Source: a virus (Duplodnaviria; Caudoviricetes). From it: a stretch of 30,299 nucleotides of DNA. Both the position numbers and the translations under genes were made by a program. How positions within the stretch are numbered: position 1 is the stretch's first letter; every line of letters begins with the position of its first letter. Of the stretch, positions 1,868-20,430 are shown one piece after another. The notes below the pieces were generated by a model. That model had not been told where the DNA came from, did not search any database, and saw only the letters and a list, made by a program, of their open reading frames with translations. The DNA lies in the IMG/VR virus record IMGVR_UViG_3300014208_000104, positions 1-30,299 of that record; one strand, written 5' to 3'.

Positions 1868-2449
1868 ATGGCTGAAACGATCCGAATAGCTTGCACGGGC
1901 TCGGACATGCTCCCCCTCGACCAGATCGAGGACTTTCAGAGCGGCCTGAAAAGGCGCGGCAAGAAGGAAGTCGAGCAGATAATCACGTCCATCCTCAAGT
2001 TCGGGTTCTCCTTCCCCTTCTACGTCTGGAACGGCACCGGCCACAACTACTGCCTTGACGGCCACGGGAGGCTTGCCGCCCTCGCCGAGCTTCGCCGCCG
2101 TGGCACGAGCCTGCCGACCTTCCCCGTGGTCTACGTGGATGCTGCCGACGAGGCCGAGGCCAAGCAAAAGCTTCTCCGGCTCAATAGCCAATACGGCACC
2201 ATGAGCATCGACAGCGTGCTCGAGTTCATGGACGGGCTGGAGATCGAGGGGGAGGAGCTGGCGCTTCCGAGCGGGACGCTGGAATTGGATTCATCCGAGA
2301 TGAACACGGTGGCCTCAGCCGGCGCGGACGAGGTGGGCTACCACGAAAAAATAGAGATCATAATTTCCGCTTCGGGCGACGAAGAAGCGGAAGCGCTTTA
2401 CGGCGAGTTTGTCGAAAGGGGGCTTAAGTGCCGCATTTCGACATTGTGA
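1868..2449 (+). CDS. ParB/Srx N-terminal-domain protein, no HTH
   Basis: SILKFGFSFPFYVW...LDGHGRLAAL...PVVYV...EAKQKLLRLNSQYG is a typical phage ParB-like domain. Confidence 0.85.
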   Translation: MAETIRIACTGSDMLPLDQIEDFQSGLKRRGKKEVEQIITSILKFGFSFPFYVWNGTGHNYCLDGHGRLAALAELRRRGTSLPTFPVVYVDAADEAEAKQKLLRLNSQYGTMSIDSVLEFMDGLEIEGEELALPSGTLELDSSEMNTVASAGADEVGYHEKIEIIISASGDEEAEALYGEFVERGLKCRISTL

Positions 2450-3507
2450 AGCATAATGAGATCGAGGCGAAGTCTTTCCGTGTCGCCCAACTTTATGATC
2501 AATTCGATATCACCGGGGACAGGTTTGATGAACGATTCACCGGGGACATAGAGCCGCCCGAGTCATGGAGTATCGGCGTCATAGTCGGCAAGTCAGGCAC
2601 GGGCAAGACGACGATAGCTCGAGAATTGTTCGGCGAATATTTTGCGCACTTCGACTATTCGGCGTCTTGTGTTGTGGACGATTTCGACAAAAGCATACCG
2701 AGCGTCGAGCTTTTCGGGGTTCTCTCCTCAGTCGGCTTTGCTTCGCCACCTTCATGGCTCAAGCCTTATTCGGTTCTATCCAACGGCGAGAAAATGCGAG
2801 TCGATCTTGCTCGGGCCATTTTGCAAGATCAAGAGATCATTATTTTCGACGAGTACACTTCGGTTGTTGACCGAGAGGTGGCGCAGATAGGAAGTCTCGC
2901 TCTTCAGAAGAGCGTAAGGCGCGCCGGGAAAAGATTTATCGCCGTCACCTGCCATTACGACGTGATTGAATGGTTAGAGCCTGATTGGGTTTTTTCGACC
3001 GACGAAATGACAATGACAAGGGGGTCGGTTCGTCGCCCAAAAATCGATATTGAAGTTCGCAAAATTAAAGGGTTATGGGGAATGTTTAGGCGTTATCACT
3101 ATCTAAACCATGATATCAGCCGATCGGCTGATGAGTTTGTCGCGTTCTACCACGACAAGCCAATAGGGTTTAGCGCATGGATACATTTCCCCAATAACAT
3201 GGGCTTGTCGATGATGAAGGGTCATCGATTTGTGGTGCTACCTGACTATCAGGGAGTAGGGCTCAACTCCCGATTGGTCAACTTCTGCGCGGACTATTAC
3301 AACTCTAAAATAGATTTTGTGGGGATTACAACTTCGCATAAAGGTTTTGCAAAGGCATGGATGAGAGAAAAAAACTGGCGACTGATAAGAGCTGGTCATA
3401 CCTCGATAAATACAAATATCAAGGCATTAAATAAAAGCGTTTCATCAGCACGAAATACCTACTCGTTCCGGTATTTTCCAAAACGAGAGGGAGCCGCGAA
3501 TGTTTAG
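2428..3507 (+). CDS. ABC-type ATPase fused to Mom-like GNAT acyltransferase (putative DNA modification enzyme)
   Basis: Walker A GKSGTGKT, signature LSNGE, Walker B IIIFDE, H-loop VTCH; C-terminal RRYHYL...RFVVLPDYQGVGL acetyl-CoA motif. Confidence 0.85.
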   Translation: MPHFDIVKHNEIEAKSFRVAQLYDQFDITGDRFDERFTGDIEPPESWSIGVIVGKSGTGKTTIARELFGEYFAHFDYSASCVVDDFDKSIPSVELFGVLSSVGFASPPSWLKPYSVLSNGEKMRVDLARAILQDQEIIIFDEYTSVVDREVAQIGSLALQKSVRRAGKRFIAVTCHYDVIEWLEPDWVFSTDEMTMTRGSVRRPKIDIEVRKIKGLWGMFRRYHYLNHDISRSADEFVAFYHDKPIGFSAWIHFPNNMGLSMMKGHRFVVLPDYQGVGLNSRLVNFCADYYNSKIDFVGITTSHKGFAKAWMREKNWRLIRAGHTSINTNIKALNKSVSSARNTYSFRYFPKREGAANV

Positions 3508-3899: not shown

Positions 3900-4298
3900 A
3901 TGCCTAGAGGGAAAACCGAGAACCTTGTACCCCAGTCAAAGCGAACAAAGGCGAAACAAAGGGAAATCGCGCGCGAAGGGGGCAAGGCCTCTGGCGTCGC
4001 CCGCCGCGAGAAAAAGCTCATGTCGCAGATATATGGCGAGTTCCTGGCCGAGCGCTTCGCCGTCACCGTCGATGGCAAAAAACAGGACATGACCGGCGAG
4101 AAGCTGGTCAACCGCGTAGTCAAAAAGGTGCTGATTGCGGGCGGGCCGTCCGCCGTGTCGCTCATGCGCGAGATCCGCGAGGCGACCGAGGGCAGCAAGA
4201 TAGCCCATTCCGGCTCTGTCATGTTCGGCAACCTCTCTGACGAGGACCTTGAGAAGCTTGTAGCTGAAGAGATCGCGGGGCGGTCCGGTGCAAAATAG
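3900..4298 (+). CDS. Putative terminase small subunit
   Basis: Immediately upstream of TerL; ENLVP...REIAREGGKASGVARR basic N-terminus seen in TerS-position proteins. Confidence 0.65.
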   Translation: MPRGKTENLVPQSKRTKAKQREIAREGGKASGVARREKKLMSQIYGEFLAERFAVTVDGKKQDMTGEKLVNRVVKKVLIAGGPSAVSLMREIREATEGSKIAHSGSVMFGNLSDEDLEKLVAEEIAGRSGAK

Positions 4299-6720
4299 GG
4301 AGCTGGCCCAGGCTATCCTCGAGCTGCGCGCCCGCAAGGCCCGGAAGTCGCACCTAGACTTCATGACGTTCGCTTGGCGCGGGCTCGGTCAGTTCACGCC
4401 GGGCTTTCATACCCGGAAAATCTGCGAGCGGATTGACCGGGCCTTCGAGGACTACCGGCAGGGCCGGACCACCTACCTGCTGATCAACGTCCACCATCGG
4501 GCCGGGAAGGCGTTGCAGGTTGATACGCCTATCCCGACACCCAGCGGATATAGCCGAATAATAGATCTAACAATAGGAGATGAAATATTCAATGAGCATG
4601 GGGAAATATGTCGCGTATTGGCTAAGAGTCCGGTATACAAAGACAGGGATTGTTATGCAGTACATGCTAATGACGGGGAAATAATAATAGCGGATGGGGA
4701 ACATGAATGGGTTACGAGACAATGCCGACATGAAAAGAAGTTTTTGAGGCACACAACGGAATGGCTGGGTAACAGAACGTGTCTGTTGAGATCATTGATA
4801 GCGACGCAACGGTCGTTACAATTGCCCGATCGTAAATTATTAATTGATCCATACGTCTTTGGCTTATGGTTGGGCGATGGAAGATCGAATAACACCTTCA
4901 TTACTTCCGGGGTTAACGAAGATCAAACATTCATAAATAACGAGATAGTAAAGGCTGGATATAAGATCACACCGCATAAAGACAAGCGGAATACCAGCAT
5001 AATGGGAATATTGATAAAACTACGGGAATTGAATCTATTAAATAACAAACACATACCAATGGAATATAAGCGTTCGTCGATATCGCAGCGGATGGCATTA
5101 TTGCAGGGGTTGATTGATACCGACGGATATGTTGATCCGAGGCGGGGACTAATTGAGTTTTGTAATGTCAATAAAACACTGGCAGAAGACGTGCAAGAAC
5201 TCGTTTCATCGCTTGGGGTTAAATGCTCATTGAATGTTGGAGACGCGACAATAAATGGTAGGTTCATATCCAAAAAATACAGGGTCATGTTCTACATGGA
5301 GAACGCGGCTAGACTTCCAAGGAAACGCCAATATTCTCGTAATGGGACGAGACAGCCAGGAAGATATATAGATGTCCATCCATATGGCAAGGCTGACACC
5401 GTGTGCATCCAAACAACATCGCCTAGCGGGATGTTCCTTTGCGGCAAGACAATGCTTCCCACGCACAACAGCGATATCGTCTCTCGCTATCTTGGCCCTC
5501 ACTTCCTCGGCGAGTTTTCCGGCGCGGAGGTTATGCAGGTATCCTACGCTGCCGACAAGGCGACCGAGTTTTCAGCCTTCGCTCGCGGCGTGATAGAGTC
5601 CCCGCGCTACGGGCTCTGCTACCCCGGCCTTGTCTTGTCTACCGATACCAACCGCAAGGACCACTACCTCACTGACAAGGGCGGCGGGCTCATGGCGACG
5701 GGGCTACAGGGCCACATGACGGGCTCAGGCTACGCGCTGGGCATTCTCGATGACTATTGTTCGGGTCGCGCTGAGGCCGAGAGTGCCGTACAGAGGGACA
5801 ATGCGTGGAACGCCTTCAAGGACGACTTCATGACCCGCATCGCCCCGGTTGGGATTGTGCTTGTGCTGGCGACATGGTGGAACATCGACGACATCACAGG
5901 CCGGATTCTCAAGGCCATGAAGGCCGACCCCGAGTTCCCGCGCTTCGAGGTTATGCAATTCCCGGCCAAGGCTACTGACTACAAGGGCGATGGCGAATAC
6001 CCCTCGGAATATCTTTTCGAAGAGCGCTATCCCAAGACATGGTATCGGACGCAATATGCGACGCTCGGGCGCTATTCGGCCGCGGCGATTCTCGACTGCA
6101 ATCCCCAACCCCGAACAGGCGGGCGGCTCAACGTTGAGCATATCGAGTGGTACGATGAGCCGCCAAAGGACAAAAAACTATCGTGGGTCCGGGTTTGGGA
6201 TCTAGCCCACACCGCCAAGCAGCGCGGGGGCGACGATCCCGACTGGACGAGCGGGACGTACCTTGCCTTCGAGCGCCGGGCGGGGGACCCCGTGCCGCAC
6301 CTCTGGGTTGATCACGTCATGAGGACGCGAGATGATGCTACGGAGCGGGATGCGAAGATCAAGACGACGGCTAGAATGGACGGGCCCCGGGTACGCCAGG
6401 GTGTAGAGTCCTCGCTGGATTCCAAGGACGCATATCCTTATCTCAAACGCGCCATGCCCGAACTTTCATGGTATAAGATCAATATTCATGGCGAGGGCGA
6501 CAAGGCTATGCGCGCGACGCCCTTGGAGCCGATATTCGAGGCGTCCGGACACGTCCACGTCCGTCGCGGCGAGTGGAACGACGCATGGCTTGATGAGATT
6601 ATGCGTTTCGATGGCTTGACGGGGCACGATGACCAAGTGGACAATCTGAGCGCGGGGTATATAATGCAGATGGGCAAGCGGATGCGCGCGGGGCAATCAG
6701 CCGCCGCGCTGGGGCTATAA
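4288..6720 (+). CDS. terL: Terminase large subunit containing an intein (about 490 aa after splicing)
   Basis: Split Walker A HHRAGK/S, Walker B GILDD, nuclease motifs RVWDLA, DPDWT, HDDQVD. Confidence 0.95.
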   Translation: MQNRELAQAILELRARKARKSHLDFMTFAWRGLGQFTPGFHTRKICERIDRAFEDYRQGRTTYLLINVHHRAGKALQVDTPIPTPSGYSRIIDLTIGDEIFNEHGEICRVLAKSPVYKDRDCYAVHANDGEIIIADGEHEWVTRQCRHEKKFLRHTTEWLGNRTCLLRSLIATQRSLQLPDRKLLIDPYVFGLWLGDGRSNNTFITSGVNEDQTFINNEIVKAGYKITPHKDKRNTSIMGILIKLRELNLLNNKHIPMEYKRSSISQRMALLQGLIDTDGYVDPRRGLIEFCNVNKTLAEDVQELVSSLGVKCSLNVGDATINGRFISKKYRVMFYMENAARLPRKRQYSRNGTRQPGRYIDVHPYGKADTVCIQTTSPSGMFLCGKTMLPTHNSDIVSRYLGPHFLGEFSGAEVMQVSYAADKATEFSAFARGVIESPRYGLCYPGLVLSTDTNRKDHYLTDKGGGLMATGLQGHMTGSGYALGILDDYCSGRAEAESAVQRDNAWNAFKDDFMTRIAPVGIVLVLATWWNIDDITGRILKAMKADPEFPRFEVMQFPAKATDYKGDGEYPSEYLFEERYPKTWYRTQYATLGRYSAAAILDCNPQPRTGGRLNVEHIEWYDEPPKDKKLSWVRVWDLAHTAKQRGGDDPDWTSGTYLAFERRAGDPVPHLWVDHVMRTRDDATERDAKIKTTARMDGPRVRQGVESSLDSKDAYPYLKRAMPELSWYKINIHGEGDKAMRATPLEPIFEASGHVHVRRGEWNDAWLDEIMRFDGLTGHDDQVDNLSAGYIMQMGKRMRAGQSAAALGL
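4510..5469 (+). mobile_element. Class 3 (Ala1) intein with LAGLIDADG homing endonuclease, 320 aa
   Basis: Starts ALQVDTPIPTPSG; block B ADGEHEW; FGLWLGDG and LLQGLIDTDG; block F TVCIQ; ends PTHN/S; AT-richer than flanks. Confidence 0.92.
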
Positions 6721-15849: not shown

Positions 15850-16490
15850 GCATTTTGCAGTTTCTTTCCAAGAACGACACCACCAAACAGGTCCGGGGCG
15901 CGCACAGCGACATCCTGCCTTTCGTCCCCGTCGGCGGTAACTACATGGAGTGGGCGCGCAAGGGACAAATCTTCGTCGGCTCCACCACGACCGCCGCGAT
16001 CATCCCGAAGTTCGACGACACCACCAACGTCCCGACGCTCTGGAACCCCGCCGACTCCGGGAAGGCCATCGTCCCGATCTCCCTTTCCGTCTCCTATCTC
16101 GCGGAGGGAACGGAGATCATCCATAGCATCCTACTCGGCTACAAAACCAATGCGGGATCGGCGCTCGGCACCGCCGCGCCCTTCTCGGTGTTCACCGAGG
16201 TCGCGCCGGTTTCGCTCAACATCGGCAGCAAGGTCGCGGCCGTGGGCAAGTGGTCCCCGGCTACCAACACCGCCACTGCGGCCCATACCTACCTCATGAC
16301 CCTTGGCATGGGCTTCTGGACCGAAGGCACCGCCGCCACGTCTTCGCCCTATTCGGCCATGGAATACGAGTTCAAGGGCCGCCTACTCATGCAGCCCGGA
16401 ACCTCGGTAATCGTCTGCGCCGACGCCGCGTCTTCGACCACGGCCTACGTCTCCCTCGTGTGGGCCGAACTGCCCCTCGAATACCTCTAG
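15846..16490 (+). CDS. Putative virion structural protein
   Basis: SD GAGGAG; Thr/Ala-rich; TLWNPADSGK, LLMQPGT, SLVWAE; capsid-like codon bias. Confidence 0.65.
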   Translation: MSILQFLSKNDTTKQVRGAHSDILPFVPVGGNYMEWARKGQIFVGSTTTAAIIPKFDDTTNVPTLWNPADSGKAIVPISLSVSYLAEGTEIIHSILLGYKTNAGSALGTAAPFSVFTEVAPVSLNIGSKVAAVGKWSPATNTATAAHTYLMTLGMGFWTEGTAATSSPYSAMEYEFKGRLLMQPGTSVIVCADAASSTTAYVSLVWAELPLEYL

Positions 16491-16496
16491 CCGTTT

Positions 16497-16546
16497 AGCG
16501 GGCGGGGTGGGGTTCTCCCTCCTTTCTCTGCCTTGCCCGCTTTTTT
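16497..16546 (+). terminator. Intrinsic terminator with pyrimidine-rich anti-SD loop
   Basis: 16-bp stem (16497-16512/16526-16541, with G-U pairs), loop TTCTCCCTCCTTT, T6 tract. Confidence 0.75.
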
Positions 16547-16557
16547 AGGAGGATCGT

Positions 16558-18407: not shown

Positions 18408-18563
18408 ATGTGGGCAAGTTCTGAAAATAGAGGCGGATGGACTAGTACTGATTCGGCAATGAATTGTATTGAATGCGGATACCTTCTATCGGGAATAGAA
18501 TCGGTCCATTTGCATTATACTGATGAATGCTATGGAGAATATTGTCGGAGAAATAATGGATAA
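18408..18563 (+). CDS. Small Cys-containing hypothetical protein (51 aa)
   Basis: SD AAGGAGG; CIEC...ECYGEYC. Confidence 0.55.
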   Translation: MWASSENRGGWTSTDSAMNCIECGYLLSGIESVHLHYTDECYGEYCRRNNG

Positions 18564-19191
18564 AATTAGGCGCATCGCTCTAGTCGGAAACGGTGCTACT
18601 ACTCGGGCATCAGATAATTTCGAAGGGGAGATATGGACGACGGCGAGCGTGGCGAAAATCCTCCCGCGCGTTGATCGCGTTTTCGAGGTTCACAAGGAAT
18701 ACGACGCGCCGAGGCTGAACGGGTATGACTGCCCGATTATAATGAACGGGCCGCATTCGGACATCAAGCATTGCGTCGATCTTGGGATTGGGGAGCTGGT
18801 CGCTGAGTATGGCCCCATATTTCAATTTTCCTACGACTACATGATGGCGCACGCGATGGAAGCGAGAATCAAGGATATCACGCTTTTTGGTATCGATCTT
18901 GCGACCGACGACGAATACGAGCATATGCGGCTGAGCTTCTACTACTGGATCGGGGTACTCCGTGGGTCCGGGGCGACGGTTCGGGTGTCGGAAGGCTCGG
19001 CGATTCTGCAAGGCGACTGGCAATATTGTCACAAGGCAAACCGTGTGCGTGATTGGGTCAACGCGCGAATCCCGCTAATACGGGATAAGCTCGCCGAGGC
19101 AGAGGACAATAGGGACGTGGCGGCGTCTAGGGCCGACCAATTCAGAGGATACCGGGAAGCACTCGAAGATATGTCCCGGTTAGGAGTGTAA
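18556..19191 (+). CDS. Maf/sialyltransferase-like (GT42/GT29/MptE-like fold) putative glycosyltransferase
   Basis: SD GGAG before ATG 18556; IALVGNG near N-terminus; SYDYMMAHA...IKDITLFGIDL; C-terminal coiled coil. Confidence 0.6.
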   Translation: MDKIRRIALVGNGATTRASDNFEGEIWTTASVAKILPRVDRVFEVHKEYDAPRLNGYDCPIIMNGPHSDIKHCVDLGIGELVAEYGPIFQFSYDYMMAHAMEARIKDITLFGIDLATDDEYEHMRLSFYYWIGVLRGSGATVRVSEGSAILQGDWQYCHKANRVRDWVNARIPLIRDKLAEAEDNRDVAASRADQFRGYREALEDMSRLGV

Positions 19192-19194
19192 ATA

Positions 19195-19695
19195 ATGAGC
19201 GCATCTACCCGCTCCAATGGCTACGATTGGCGGCTCAAGCTACTCACTGTCGTGACGTGCACCGCATGTTCGACCAACCCCGACTCTATTCGATTCATAG
19301 CGACTACCTGTACGGTTGTCGGCGGGTTCGATAGCATCGGTGGGCTCGGCGGTACTTTCGACGTTGACGACAATGTTGCGTTCGAAGACGCCATGCACCA
19401 CACCGTCATCGGCCCCGCAAACTATGGCCCCGTCGTGGCATCGGGCACCTACGACCCCCTTGAGACCTCGCAGAAGGCAATTTTCGGTGAGATGGTCCAC
19501 GAAGCCGGGGGCGCGACCACCGTTCGGCCCACGACTCGCGTATGGGCCGCAGTCGATACTGTCAACAAGCGTTCGCATCGGTTCAAGGGACGTTTGATCG
19601 AGTTCATCCCCGGCCCTGCGGGCGCGCGCGGGAAGGTCCCGGTCAGCATCAAGATTGCCGTGGATTCGATTCCTCAGGTCTGCACCACGGCGTAA
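19195..19695 (+). CDS. Putative tail tube (major tail) protein
   Basis: Upstream of the chaperone/tape measure genes; beta-rich; HRFKGRL...KVPVSIKIAV; SD AGGAG. Confidence 0.7.
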   Translation: MSASTRSNGYDWRLKLLTVVTCTACSTNPDSIRFIATTCTVVGGFDSIGGLGGTFDVDDNVAFEDAMHHTVIGPANYGPVVASGTYDPLETSQKAIFGEMVHEAGGATTVRPTTRVWAAVDTVNKRSHRFKGRLIEFIPGPAGARGKVPVSIKIAVDSIPQVCTTA

Positions 19696-19700
19696 AAACA

Positions 19701-19748
19701 GGCGGCGTCAATGCGCGAGGCAGCCGGTTCGAACCCGGCCGCCGCCCA
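19701..19748 (+). ncRNA. tRNA-like mini-element (acceptor stem plus T-arm, no D or anticodon arm)
   Basis: GGCGGCG/CGCCGCC 7-bp stem; GCCGG-TTCGAAC-CCGGC T-arm; 15-nt connector. Confidence 0.7.
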
Positions 19749-19765
19749 TGGGTAAAGGAGCTATT

Positions 19766-20155
19766 ATGATCGAACTAAAAGAAGGGAATATTGGTACCAT
19801 CGGCAAGGGTGCTAATATGGTGACCTATCGCTATCGCGGCATGACCGGCGAGGAGCAGGCGCGCTATATTAATGACGCCATCAGACTGGCTGGAAGCCAA
19901 GACGGCATATCCTATGTCGATGTTGCCAAGAATCACGTAACGAGCATCGATAATCTTTTCGAGAACGACGGCAAGACACCCATAAAAACCATCGCGGAAT
20001 ATCTTGCGACGACAGATCTTGACGGAGCAGGATATGGCATTATGGCGATGGGCATGGAGATCTGGAACCGAACCAATGGTATCAATAAAAAAAAATCATC
20101 GCCGCCTTCTACGCCCGAAGCAAACGCTACGGCTCCTACCGCCCCGAATGCATAA
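19766..20155 (+). CDS. Tail assembly chaperone (gpG-like)
   Basis: SD AAAGGAG; lies between tail tube and tape measure; contains A9 slippery run. Confidence 0.75.
   Translation: MIELKEGNIGTIGKGANMVTYRYRGMTGEEQARYINDAIRLAGSQDGISYVDVAKNHVTSIDNLFENDGKTPIKTIAEYLATTDLDGAGYGIMAMGMEIWNRTNGINKKKSSPPSTPEANATAPTAPNA
20087..20095 (+). promoter_or_regulatory. Programmed -1 frameshift site (A9)
   Basis: AAT AAA AAA AAA TCA; the -1 frame is open from 20089 to 20430. Confidence 0.75.
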
Positions 20156-20430
20156 TCCCCGCGCTCACCGGGGTGACATCGTGGACGATAACGGTTGAGA
20201 ACAAGGAGGGCGAAGACGTAGAGGAGGGGGACGTTGAGTGGTTTATTCCGGGCTTCGGCGTCGATGAGGAATATCTGATGTGGGAACGGATCTATATCCG
20301 AGCTCGCGATCAGGGAAGAATGCCTTATGCCGGGGGATGGCTTGATGGGCTGCATCAGCATAATGAGCTGATCGACTTTTTCACGCATTTAGATTGCGCG
20401 ATACAGGAGCAGGACAATGGCAACGGTTGA
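20089..20430 (+). CDS. Frameshifted chaperone extension (gpT-like)
   Basis: KKIIAAFYARSKRYG...RMPYAGGWLD...; no independent start near the 5' end of the frame. Confidence 0.7.
   Translation, partial: KKIIAAFYARSKRYGSYRPECIIPALTGVTSWTITVENKEGEDVEEGDVEWFIPGFGVDEEYLMWERIYIRARDQGRMPYAGGWLDGLHQHNELIDFFTHLDCAIQEQDNGNG

Follow-up and report, generated by a model that had tools for sequence, protein, structure and literature searches.

The 70-nt spacer between the tail tube gene and the tail assembly chaperone genes of a virus with siphovirus gene order carries, on its coding strand, a predicted structure at positions 19701 to 19746 that resembles the top half of a tRNA. The element is neither a tRNA nor an intrinsic terminator. 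It is probably derived from a tRNA and probably selected, and it occupies a gene border that in most relatives carries a terminator-like hairpin. The reading that we favor over its rivals, and judge about as likely as not, is that it works as a phage t-element, in which an RNase P cut followed by 3' trimming would split the tube message from the chaperone message.

The window (the whole stretch of DNA analyzed here, 30,299 nt) is an entire linear viral record, approximately 79% complete, and the listed sequencing runs that contain the region are labeled as groundwater metagenomes, with no RNA run among them. Its genes are arranged as terminase, portal, scaffold, capsid, neck, tail terminator, tape measure, endolysin, and holin. 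The tail tube and chaperone genes that the initial annotation had named as the flanks of the element were both borne out. The tube gene follows the neck and tail-terminator genes, and the AlphaFold model of its product (mean pLDDT of 66) had lambda gpV as the best Foldseek match (E value of 1e-6); the protein had no match in Pfam or PHROG and none among 50,697 annotated phages. Unusually for a lambda-like tube, this protein and its relatives have a cysteine-rich CTACS motif close to the N terminus and a conserved C-terminal cysteine. The downstream gene precedes the tape-measure gene, which begins at 20417, and contains an A9 run (20087 to 20095), from which a -1 frame stays open as far as 20430. 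Homologues of both parts lie at the same place in relatives, and we take this to be the tail assembly chaperone arrangement, as in lambda G/GT, with a probable programmed frameshift at the A9 run. A-runs were also seen at a like place in the chaperone genes of L137, L139, and L158. The features of the region are as follows.

19195 to 19695, plus strand: tail tube protein gene, 166 amino acids, with the stop codon TAA at 19693 to 19695
19696 to 19700, plus strand: single-stranded leader of 5 nt between the stop codon and the helix, with A at -1
19701 to 19707, plus strand: 5' strand of the acceptor-type stem, GGCGGCG (tRNA positions 1 to 7), from sequence and folding
19708 to 19722, plus strand: connector of 15 nt replacing the D arm, the anticodon arm, and the variable loop (approximately 41 nt)
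19723 to 19739, plus strand: T arm (tRNA positions 49 to 65), a 5-bp stem with a canonical 7-nt loop
19740 to 19746, plus strand: 3' strand of the acceptor-type stem, CGCCGCC (positions 66 to 72), stacked directly on the T stem
19747 to 19749, plus strand: discriminator C, then A and T, without CCA; 3' trimming is predicted after 19747
19755 to 19760, plus strand: Shine-Dalgarno-like AAGGAG of the chaperone gene, from sequence, present too in the loose end of a diverged strain
19766 to 20430, plus strand: tail assembly chaperone pair, with the short frame at 19766 to 20155 and the -1 frame open from the A9 run to 20430

The predicted fold covers 46 to 47 nt and begins 5 nt after the tube gene stop. 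All seven acceptor-type pairs (19701 to 19707 with 19740 to 19746) and all five T-stem pairs (GCCGG at 19723 to 19727 with CCGGC at 19735 to 19739) are Watson-Crick, and the loop at 19728 to 19734 is TTCGAAC, so that the annotated 7-bp stem on a 5-bp arm with a 7-nt loop held at 12 of 12 pairs. The T-arm motif GGTTCRANYCC is present at 19726 to 19736. The T that had been placed at position 8 (U8) is indeed found at 19708 but is changed in one diverged strain, and the CA pointed out after the stem is present but represents the discriminator C plus an A rather than part of a CCA end. The tiny TGC/GCA connector hairpin was likewise predicted, as 3 bp between 19712 to 19714 and 19720 to 19722, and may be incidental. 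The bases after the stem are C-A-T-G with no T-run, and scoring for terminator-like sites over 19696 to 19765 returned none, in agreement with the earlier view that this is no ordinary terminator. No promoter-like site was scored just upstream of the element. An in-frame ATG at 19748 was considered as the chaperone start and rejected, as it is not kept in the diverged strain.

No second motif of this kind was present on either strand of the window. An equivalent arose in 1 of 500 dinucleotide shuffles if only Watson-Crick pairs were counted and in 17 of 500 if G-U pairs were allowed. The folding energy was unremarkable, with a z score of -1.4 for 47 nt (17 of 200 shuffles were equally stable) and of +1.3 for 111 nt. 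Pairing of the T arm was 0.90 to 1.0 across all folding contexts tried. That of the acceptor stem was 0.93 to 0.99 if folding started after the stop codon and approximately 0.25 if 20 to 35 nt of the tube gene end were included, and with the tube gene end free, the best alternative structure outcompeted the tRNA-like fold by 0.4 kcal/mol. This competing pairing would be removed by ribosomes translating the end of the tube gene. As the initial annotation had anticipated, no full tRNA was detected: ARAGORN called no tRNA gene, and Rfam gave no hit at the gathering score (the best local hit was tRNA-Sec, with an E value of 8.2) and no model match to tmRNA, Y RNA, or other families.

Similar elements occur elsewhere in the clade. 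The window and the genomes of six near-complete relatives were searched with a strict scan that sees top halves only and that required a 7-bp stem, a 5-bp T stem, at most one G-U pair in each, and a connector of 3 to 70 nt. It gave eight hits compared with a single hit in 30 shuffled sets (8 versus 0.03). Three of the eight overlap tRNAs called by ARAGORN, and the remaining five are top-half elements, all on the coding strand between recognizable genes and none followed by CCA. Four of the six relatives carry such other elements between genes, none of which was named by Rfam, as listed here.

G001, C1:18627-18588, minus strand: top-half element (L292), perfect 7 plus 5 bp, 9-nt connector, 11 nt after the portal stop
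G002, C1:10776-10855: top-half element (L301), connector of 49 nt with two hairpins, 7 nt downstream of an HNH endonuclease gene
G004, C1:24057-23961: top-half element (L302), 66-nt structured connector, between terminase and portal
G005, C1:32245-32330: top-half element (L294), 55-nt structured connector, between terminase and portal

By eye, the G001 element, which ARAGORN did not call, lies a few bases after an extended -10-like hexamer, and the G004 and G005 elements each directly follow promoter-like hexamers. The distribution is patchy: an element precedes the portal gene in G005 and not in G006 or G003, and at the terminase-portal site, G001 carries a long, plain hairpin and a T-run, while G003 and G006 have none. 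Patchiness is also expected of decaying tRNA genes. Four true tRNA genes were found inside the late region of G003 and G004, none with an encoded CCA, which points to a host that matures CCA-less precursors. A control scan for bottom halves (D and anticodon arms) had no hits, but it recovered just one of the four real tRNAs and so carries no information.

As a t-element, the structure would have arisen when a tRNA gene lost approximately 26 internal bases and the phage retained its top half. Ribosomes occupying the end of the tube gene would favor the fold. RNase P would cut between 19700 and 19701, a position predicted from tRNA geometry, and RNase Z or 3' exonucleases would then trim after C19747, releasing a stub of approximately 47 nt. 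The chaperone message would thereby gain a new 5' end, located 7 nt upstream of the ribosome-binding site. The split would uncouple the decay of the tube message from that of the chaperone/tape-measure message and would probably lower downstream output, a job likely done by a hairpin plus T-run in relatives.

The substrate rules of the two nucleases fit this scheme in part. According to the relevant passages of PMC11143913, hairpins made of an acceptor stem and T stem-loop are cut at the canonical site by Escherichia coli RNase P, and phage RNAs and mRNAs are among the natural substrates of the enzyme, while those of PMC10731613 describe a preference of bacterial RNase P for a 3' RCCA and U(-1) and judge non-tRNA substrates to be weak competitors. 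The window element has the 12-bp helix, the T loop, and the G at +1 of the RNase P optimum; it lacks a 3' RCCA and has A, not U, at -1. A 2003 study by Li and Altman reportedly dealt with RNase P and operon mRNAs. RNase Z, in the pertinent sections of PMC7479834, contacts the T arm and acceptor stem, is inhibited by a C after the discriminator, and works more slowly on RNAs with long 5' extensions. The element has both contact regions, with A at position 74 and no C after the discriminator. Before any RNase P cut, though, its 5' extension would comprise the entire tube message. For this reason, RNase P would be the first to act, and a cut by RNase Z alone that leaves the tube message protected is unlikely. 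Thus, the earlier claim of a minimal RNase P and RNase Z substrate stood with regard to the helix, the T loop, G at +1, and the absence of C at 74, but not with regard to the missing RCCA, the A at -1, and the long 5' extension. The suggested stabilization of the tube mRNA is doubtful, since an RNase P cut at 19700/19701 would leave that message without the helix and with five unprotected bases after the stop; stabilization fits an uncut barrier better.

Capsid and endolysin searches indicated no host. A 39-kb contig of one relative was found in an Omnitrophota genome bin, which is a weak host hint only. The hinted genome has an RNase P RNA. The RNase Z family cutoff was passed in neither this genome (0 of 1) nor any of 151 Omnitrophota genomes, with approximately six near-full-length matches, and the 3' step may therefore be exonucleolytic if this weakly hinted phylum is the host.

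To compare the same site in relatives, which were fetched with tube and tail-terminator queries, 16 tube-like proteins were aligned, and the distinct relatives with a readable tube-chaperone spacer, 12 in number, were tabulated. The counts exclude L134, an identical copy of the window, and L140 and L141, which are partial matches of 26 residues; nor does the table include the duplicates of one phage (L135, L154, L008, L009, L138, L159, and L161) or the truncated L136 and L155. A hairpin was found in 10 of the 12 spacers, followed in 9 of the 12 by a T-rich tail as defined by a simple rule, and none of the 12 held a T loop. L158 and L160 are syntenic, with tube genes that have no detectable similarity to that of the window. 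The two relatives with the highest tube identity to the window, L001 (68%) and L137 (66%), have spacers of 8 or 11 nt with no structure, that of L001 following a second tube copy, so nothing at the tube-chaperone site is indispensable. The site usually holds a terminator-like structure, and the stub replaces it in one lineage. The proposed step-down of expression at this point is in keeping with the terminator-like character of the site in relatives but finds no counterpart in the two closest ones. Two tandem, diverged tail-tube genes were observed in L001 (3001 to 4017), L135, L136, L158 (5124 to 5963), and L160; the window has one.

The frequency of plain hairpins at this site is also what would be seen if the element were never cut and its G+C-rich helix paused RNA polymerase or stopped 3'-to-5' exonucleases; the tube message would then end at the helix and be stabilized, and the tRNA look would be inherited without being used. 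Such a barrier gives the expected direction, more tube message, and is consistent with the poor match of the element to the RNase P optimum and with the long hairpin of G001 and the top-half element of G005 occupying the same terminase-portal site. However, the element has no T-run, and a barrier needs neither the 7 plus 5 geometry nor the T loop that the five non-tRNA clade elements keep, although this geometry argument is partly circular because the scan selects for it. We regard an uncut barrier as unlikely, but it is the alternative that survives best.

Evidence for selection comes from one diverged strain, a 723-nt contig of run X2 that was aligned over 19600 to 19749 with 24 differences, of which 16 were listed. 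No listed difference falls within approximately 30 nt of an alignment end, so positions 19720 to 19749 are unreadable in this strain, and the eight unlisted differences may fall in the T arm or the 3' strand. The last 65 nt of the tube gene contain 11 differences, affecting 7 of 22 third codon positions, and the leader has one substitution and one inserted base. None of the 15 visible positions of the stem and connector (19701 to 19707 and 19712 to 19719) is changed, and the chance of this is 0.003 to 0.06, depending on the rate assumed. All four linker positions (19708 to 19711), including T8, are changed. The alignment breaks after 19749, beyond which the spacer differs and the ribosome-binding site is kept. 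These observations suggest purifying selection on the element. The covariation that had been proposed as a check was not obtained: with two sequences containing the element and 15 stem and connector positions readable in the second, no compensatory change was seen, and the comparative support for the window copy is thin.

The element is probably a tRNA that lost approximately 26 internal bases, an origin made probable by the top-half elements in four of the six relatives and the CCA-less tRNA genes in two of them. Positions 19713 to 19747 share 29 of 35 bases with the 3' half of a viral tRNA-Arg(CCT), L376, and 19713 to 19722 resemble tRNA positions 39 to 48. A pattern scan of IMG/VR yielded 48 loci, 16 of them with 5/5 T-stem pairs and all of these full tRNAs, a count with some circularity, since tRNAs supply most of the T arms in the collection; in these 16, the matching stretch is the 3' strand of the anticodon stem plus the variable loop. 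On a variable-loop profile built from 40 other tRNAs, the pentamer that precedes the T stem ranks 96 of 1,024, which is modest support. Two tRNAs among the collected loci start with GGCGGC, both tRNA-Cys, and the parent isotype is not identifiable from the 3'-half matches (tRNA-Arg) or the stem (tRNA-Cys). A collapsed tRNA, listed by the initial annotation as an alternative, is probably where the element came from, given this 3'-half similarity, but it does not compete with the functional explanations. A phage attachment site was rejected by inference, with both acceptor strands present and integration expected to split the tail operon; no integrase was found among the 36 open reading frames scanned in this approximately 79% complete record.

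The same origin raises the question of whether the element does anything at all, since a tail-operon tRNA gene that collapsed recently could have kept its stems intact by inheritance. Whole tRNA genes in the late region of G003 and G004 and the likeness of the 3' half to real tRNAs agree with such an idle relic, as does the absence of the element from all 12 other relatives, and separate deletions in the two strains could account for the four linker changes. On the other hand, the connector has the same length in both strains (no gap is listed over 19699 to 19749) despite differences at approximately one-third of third codon positions, every one of the 12 pairs is Watson-Crick, and G001 has an independent element with a 9-nt connector and perfect pairing. 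An idle relic is, in our estimate, quite unlikely.

Virion proteins trigger abortive defenses. The host could also excise the stub and add CCA, producing a released mimic that soaks up defense enzymes attacking tRNA 3' ends or T arms. The two predicted cuts would free a 47-nt RNA in step with a highly expressed virion gene, the clade elements follow terminase, portal, and tube genes, and three of them start within a few bases of the promoter-like hexamers noted by eye, as would be the case for small RNA genes. Such a decoy nevertheless seems improbable, as the stub offers no anticodon loop to anticodon nucleases, encodes no CCA, has a discriminator C without G at -1 and thus no clear charging identity, and has no promoter-like site scored before the window copy. 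Chance G+C-rich pairing without any tRNA link, which the folding z score of only -1.4 and the G-U-tolerant shuffles would allow, is very improbable and largely refuted by the Watson-Crick-only shuffles, the exact placement in a 70-nt coding-strand spacer, the persistence in the diverged strain, and the excess in the clade scan.

Searches beyond the clade returned no close homologue of the element among the IMG/VR pattern-scan matches listed. One scan gave at least 119 loci, at least six of which had 5/5 T-stem pairs and the seventh acceptor pair (one of them a normal tRNA-Cys), and another gave 13 loci, none with more than 3/5 T-stem pairs. BLAST of the element against annotated phages and plasmids produced weak partial matches and one full-length match, H21 on a Streptantibioticus plasmid, which was rejected: it lacks the T loop and lies on the opposite strand in an apparent transporter coding sequence. 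Elements with an acceptor stem, a T arm, and a short connector were observed between genes of unrelated viral contigs, namely L310 (1501 to 1549), L145 (587 to 627), L087 (500 to 539), L032 (500 to 550), L094/L128, L313, and L315. In the L310 element, the 7-bp acceptor stem is identical to that of the window element, and the 3' end is ACCA. These unrelated elements (e.g., L310, L145, L087, and L032) flank nontail or unknown genes, and no general link to tail tubes is shown by them.

Several other features of the window were observed. The gene at 18523 to 19191, between the tail terminator and tail tube genes, belongs to no known family, shares 50 to 65% identity with its counterparts in most relatives, and gives the impression of a nucleotide-binding or glycosyltransferase-type domain at the N terminus of its product. 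The large terminase (4288 to 6720) has an internal LAGLIDADG domain at residues 256 to 339, which is absent from the terminases of G001 and G003, whose matches cover residues 10 to 75 and 395 to 810; the insertion is a probable intein. A G+C-rich inverted repeat followed by a T-run at 16490 to 16557, before the head-tail adaptor gene, is likely an ordinary terminator, seen by eye and not scored by the terminator search. A fused ABC-type ATPase and GNAT acetyltransferase gene (2428 to 3507) adjoins a ParB-like gene upstream of the terminase.

If the host cuts the element, the virus would set the ratio of the tail tube message to the chaperone/tape-measure message by a tRNA stub and not by a leaky terminator. 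The swap at one orthologous site, with mostly a hairpin plus T-run, a stub here, and nothing in two relatives, makes the question directly testable. A stub retained in this role would also offer a reason for the persistence of broken tRNA genes in phage genomes. More tentatively, and as a possibility that we would not favor at present, tailed phages may repeatedly make stubs of 40 to 50 nt from tRNA genes as host-cut punctuation of late operons that is interchangeable with terminators, and those released after the most abundant virion genes may double as CCA-tailed tRNA mimics against host defenses directed at tRNA ends. Such stubs escape ARAGORN and Rfam. In a literature search that covered few subscription papers, we found no paper on stubs of this kind in phage late operons; tRNA-like candidates are reported among 10,006 viral RNAs in the relevant part of PMC10690425, and the alignments of that work may hold the class.

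The element shares properties with several known systems. Like the terminator-like hairpins of relatives, it starts within a few bases of the tube stop codon and is closely followed by the ribosome-binding site of the chaperone gene; unlike them, it has no T-run and consists of two stacked helices with a tRNA T loop and not of one hairpin. With canonical tRNA genes it has in common the acceptor stem, the T arm, U8, and a tRNA-like 3' half, but it lacks the D arm, the anticodon arm, and CCA and cannot decode. The natural non-tRNA substrates of RNase P named in the relevant passages of PMC11143913 and PMC10731613 are tmRNA, the phage C4 and M3 RNAs, and his operon mRNA. The 12-bp helix capped by a T loop and the G at +1 are like those of model and non-tRNA substrates, whereas the missing 3' RCCA and the A at -1 are not; C4 RNA has no T loop, and none of the natural substrates in those passages is a collapsed tRNA between tail genes. 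A t-element upstream of the 5S rRNA of Haloferax volcanii is processed by tRNase Z and RNase P, as described in the pertinent section of PMC4326828. It is likewise a prokaryotic tRNA-like cis element that frees a neighboring RNA, with processing being predicted in our case, but it is archaeal and chromosomal and flanks rRNA, whereas the window element lies inside a protein-coding phage operon. In Arabidopsis mitochondria, t-elements end mRNAs (Forner et al. 2007, PMC1920247). In the examples given in that account, they are organellar, approximately 70 to 75 nt long, and have mapped RNA ends, whereas the window element is viral, measures 46 to 47 nt, has no D or anticodon arm, and has ends predicted from sequence. 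The two are alike in being tRNA-like and noncoding, in carrying the GGTTCRANYCC T-arm motif, in lying at a gene border, and in being proposed as RNase P/RNase Z signals. Assignment of the stub to the t-elements would go by this shared shape and position, and, if the host does cut it, the stub would be a phage version of mitochondrial tRNA punctuation.
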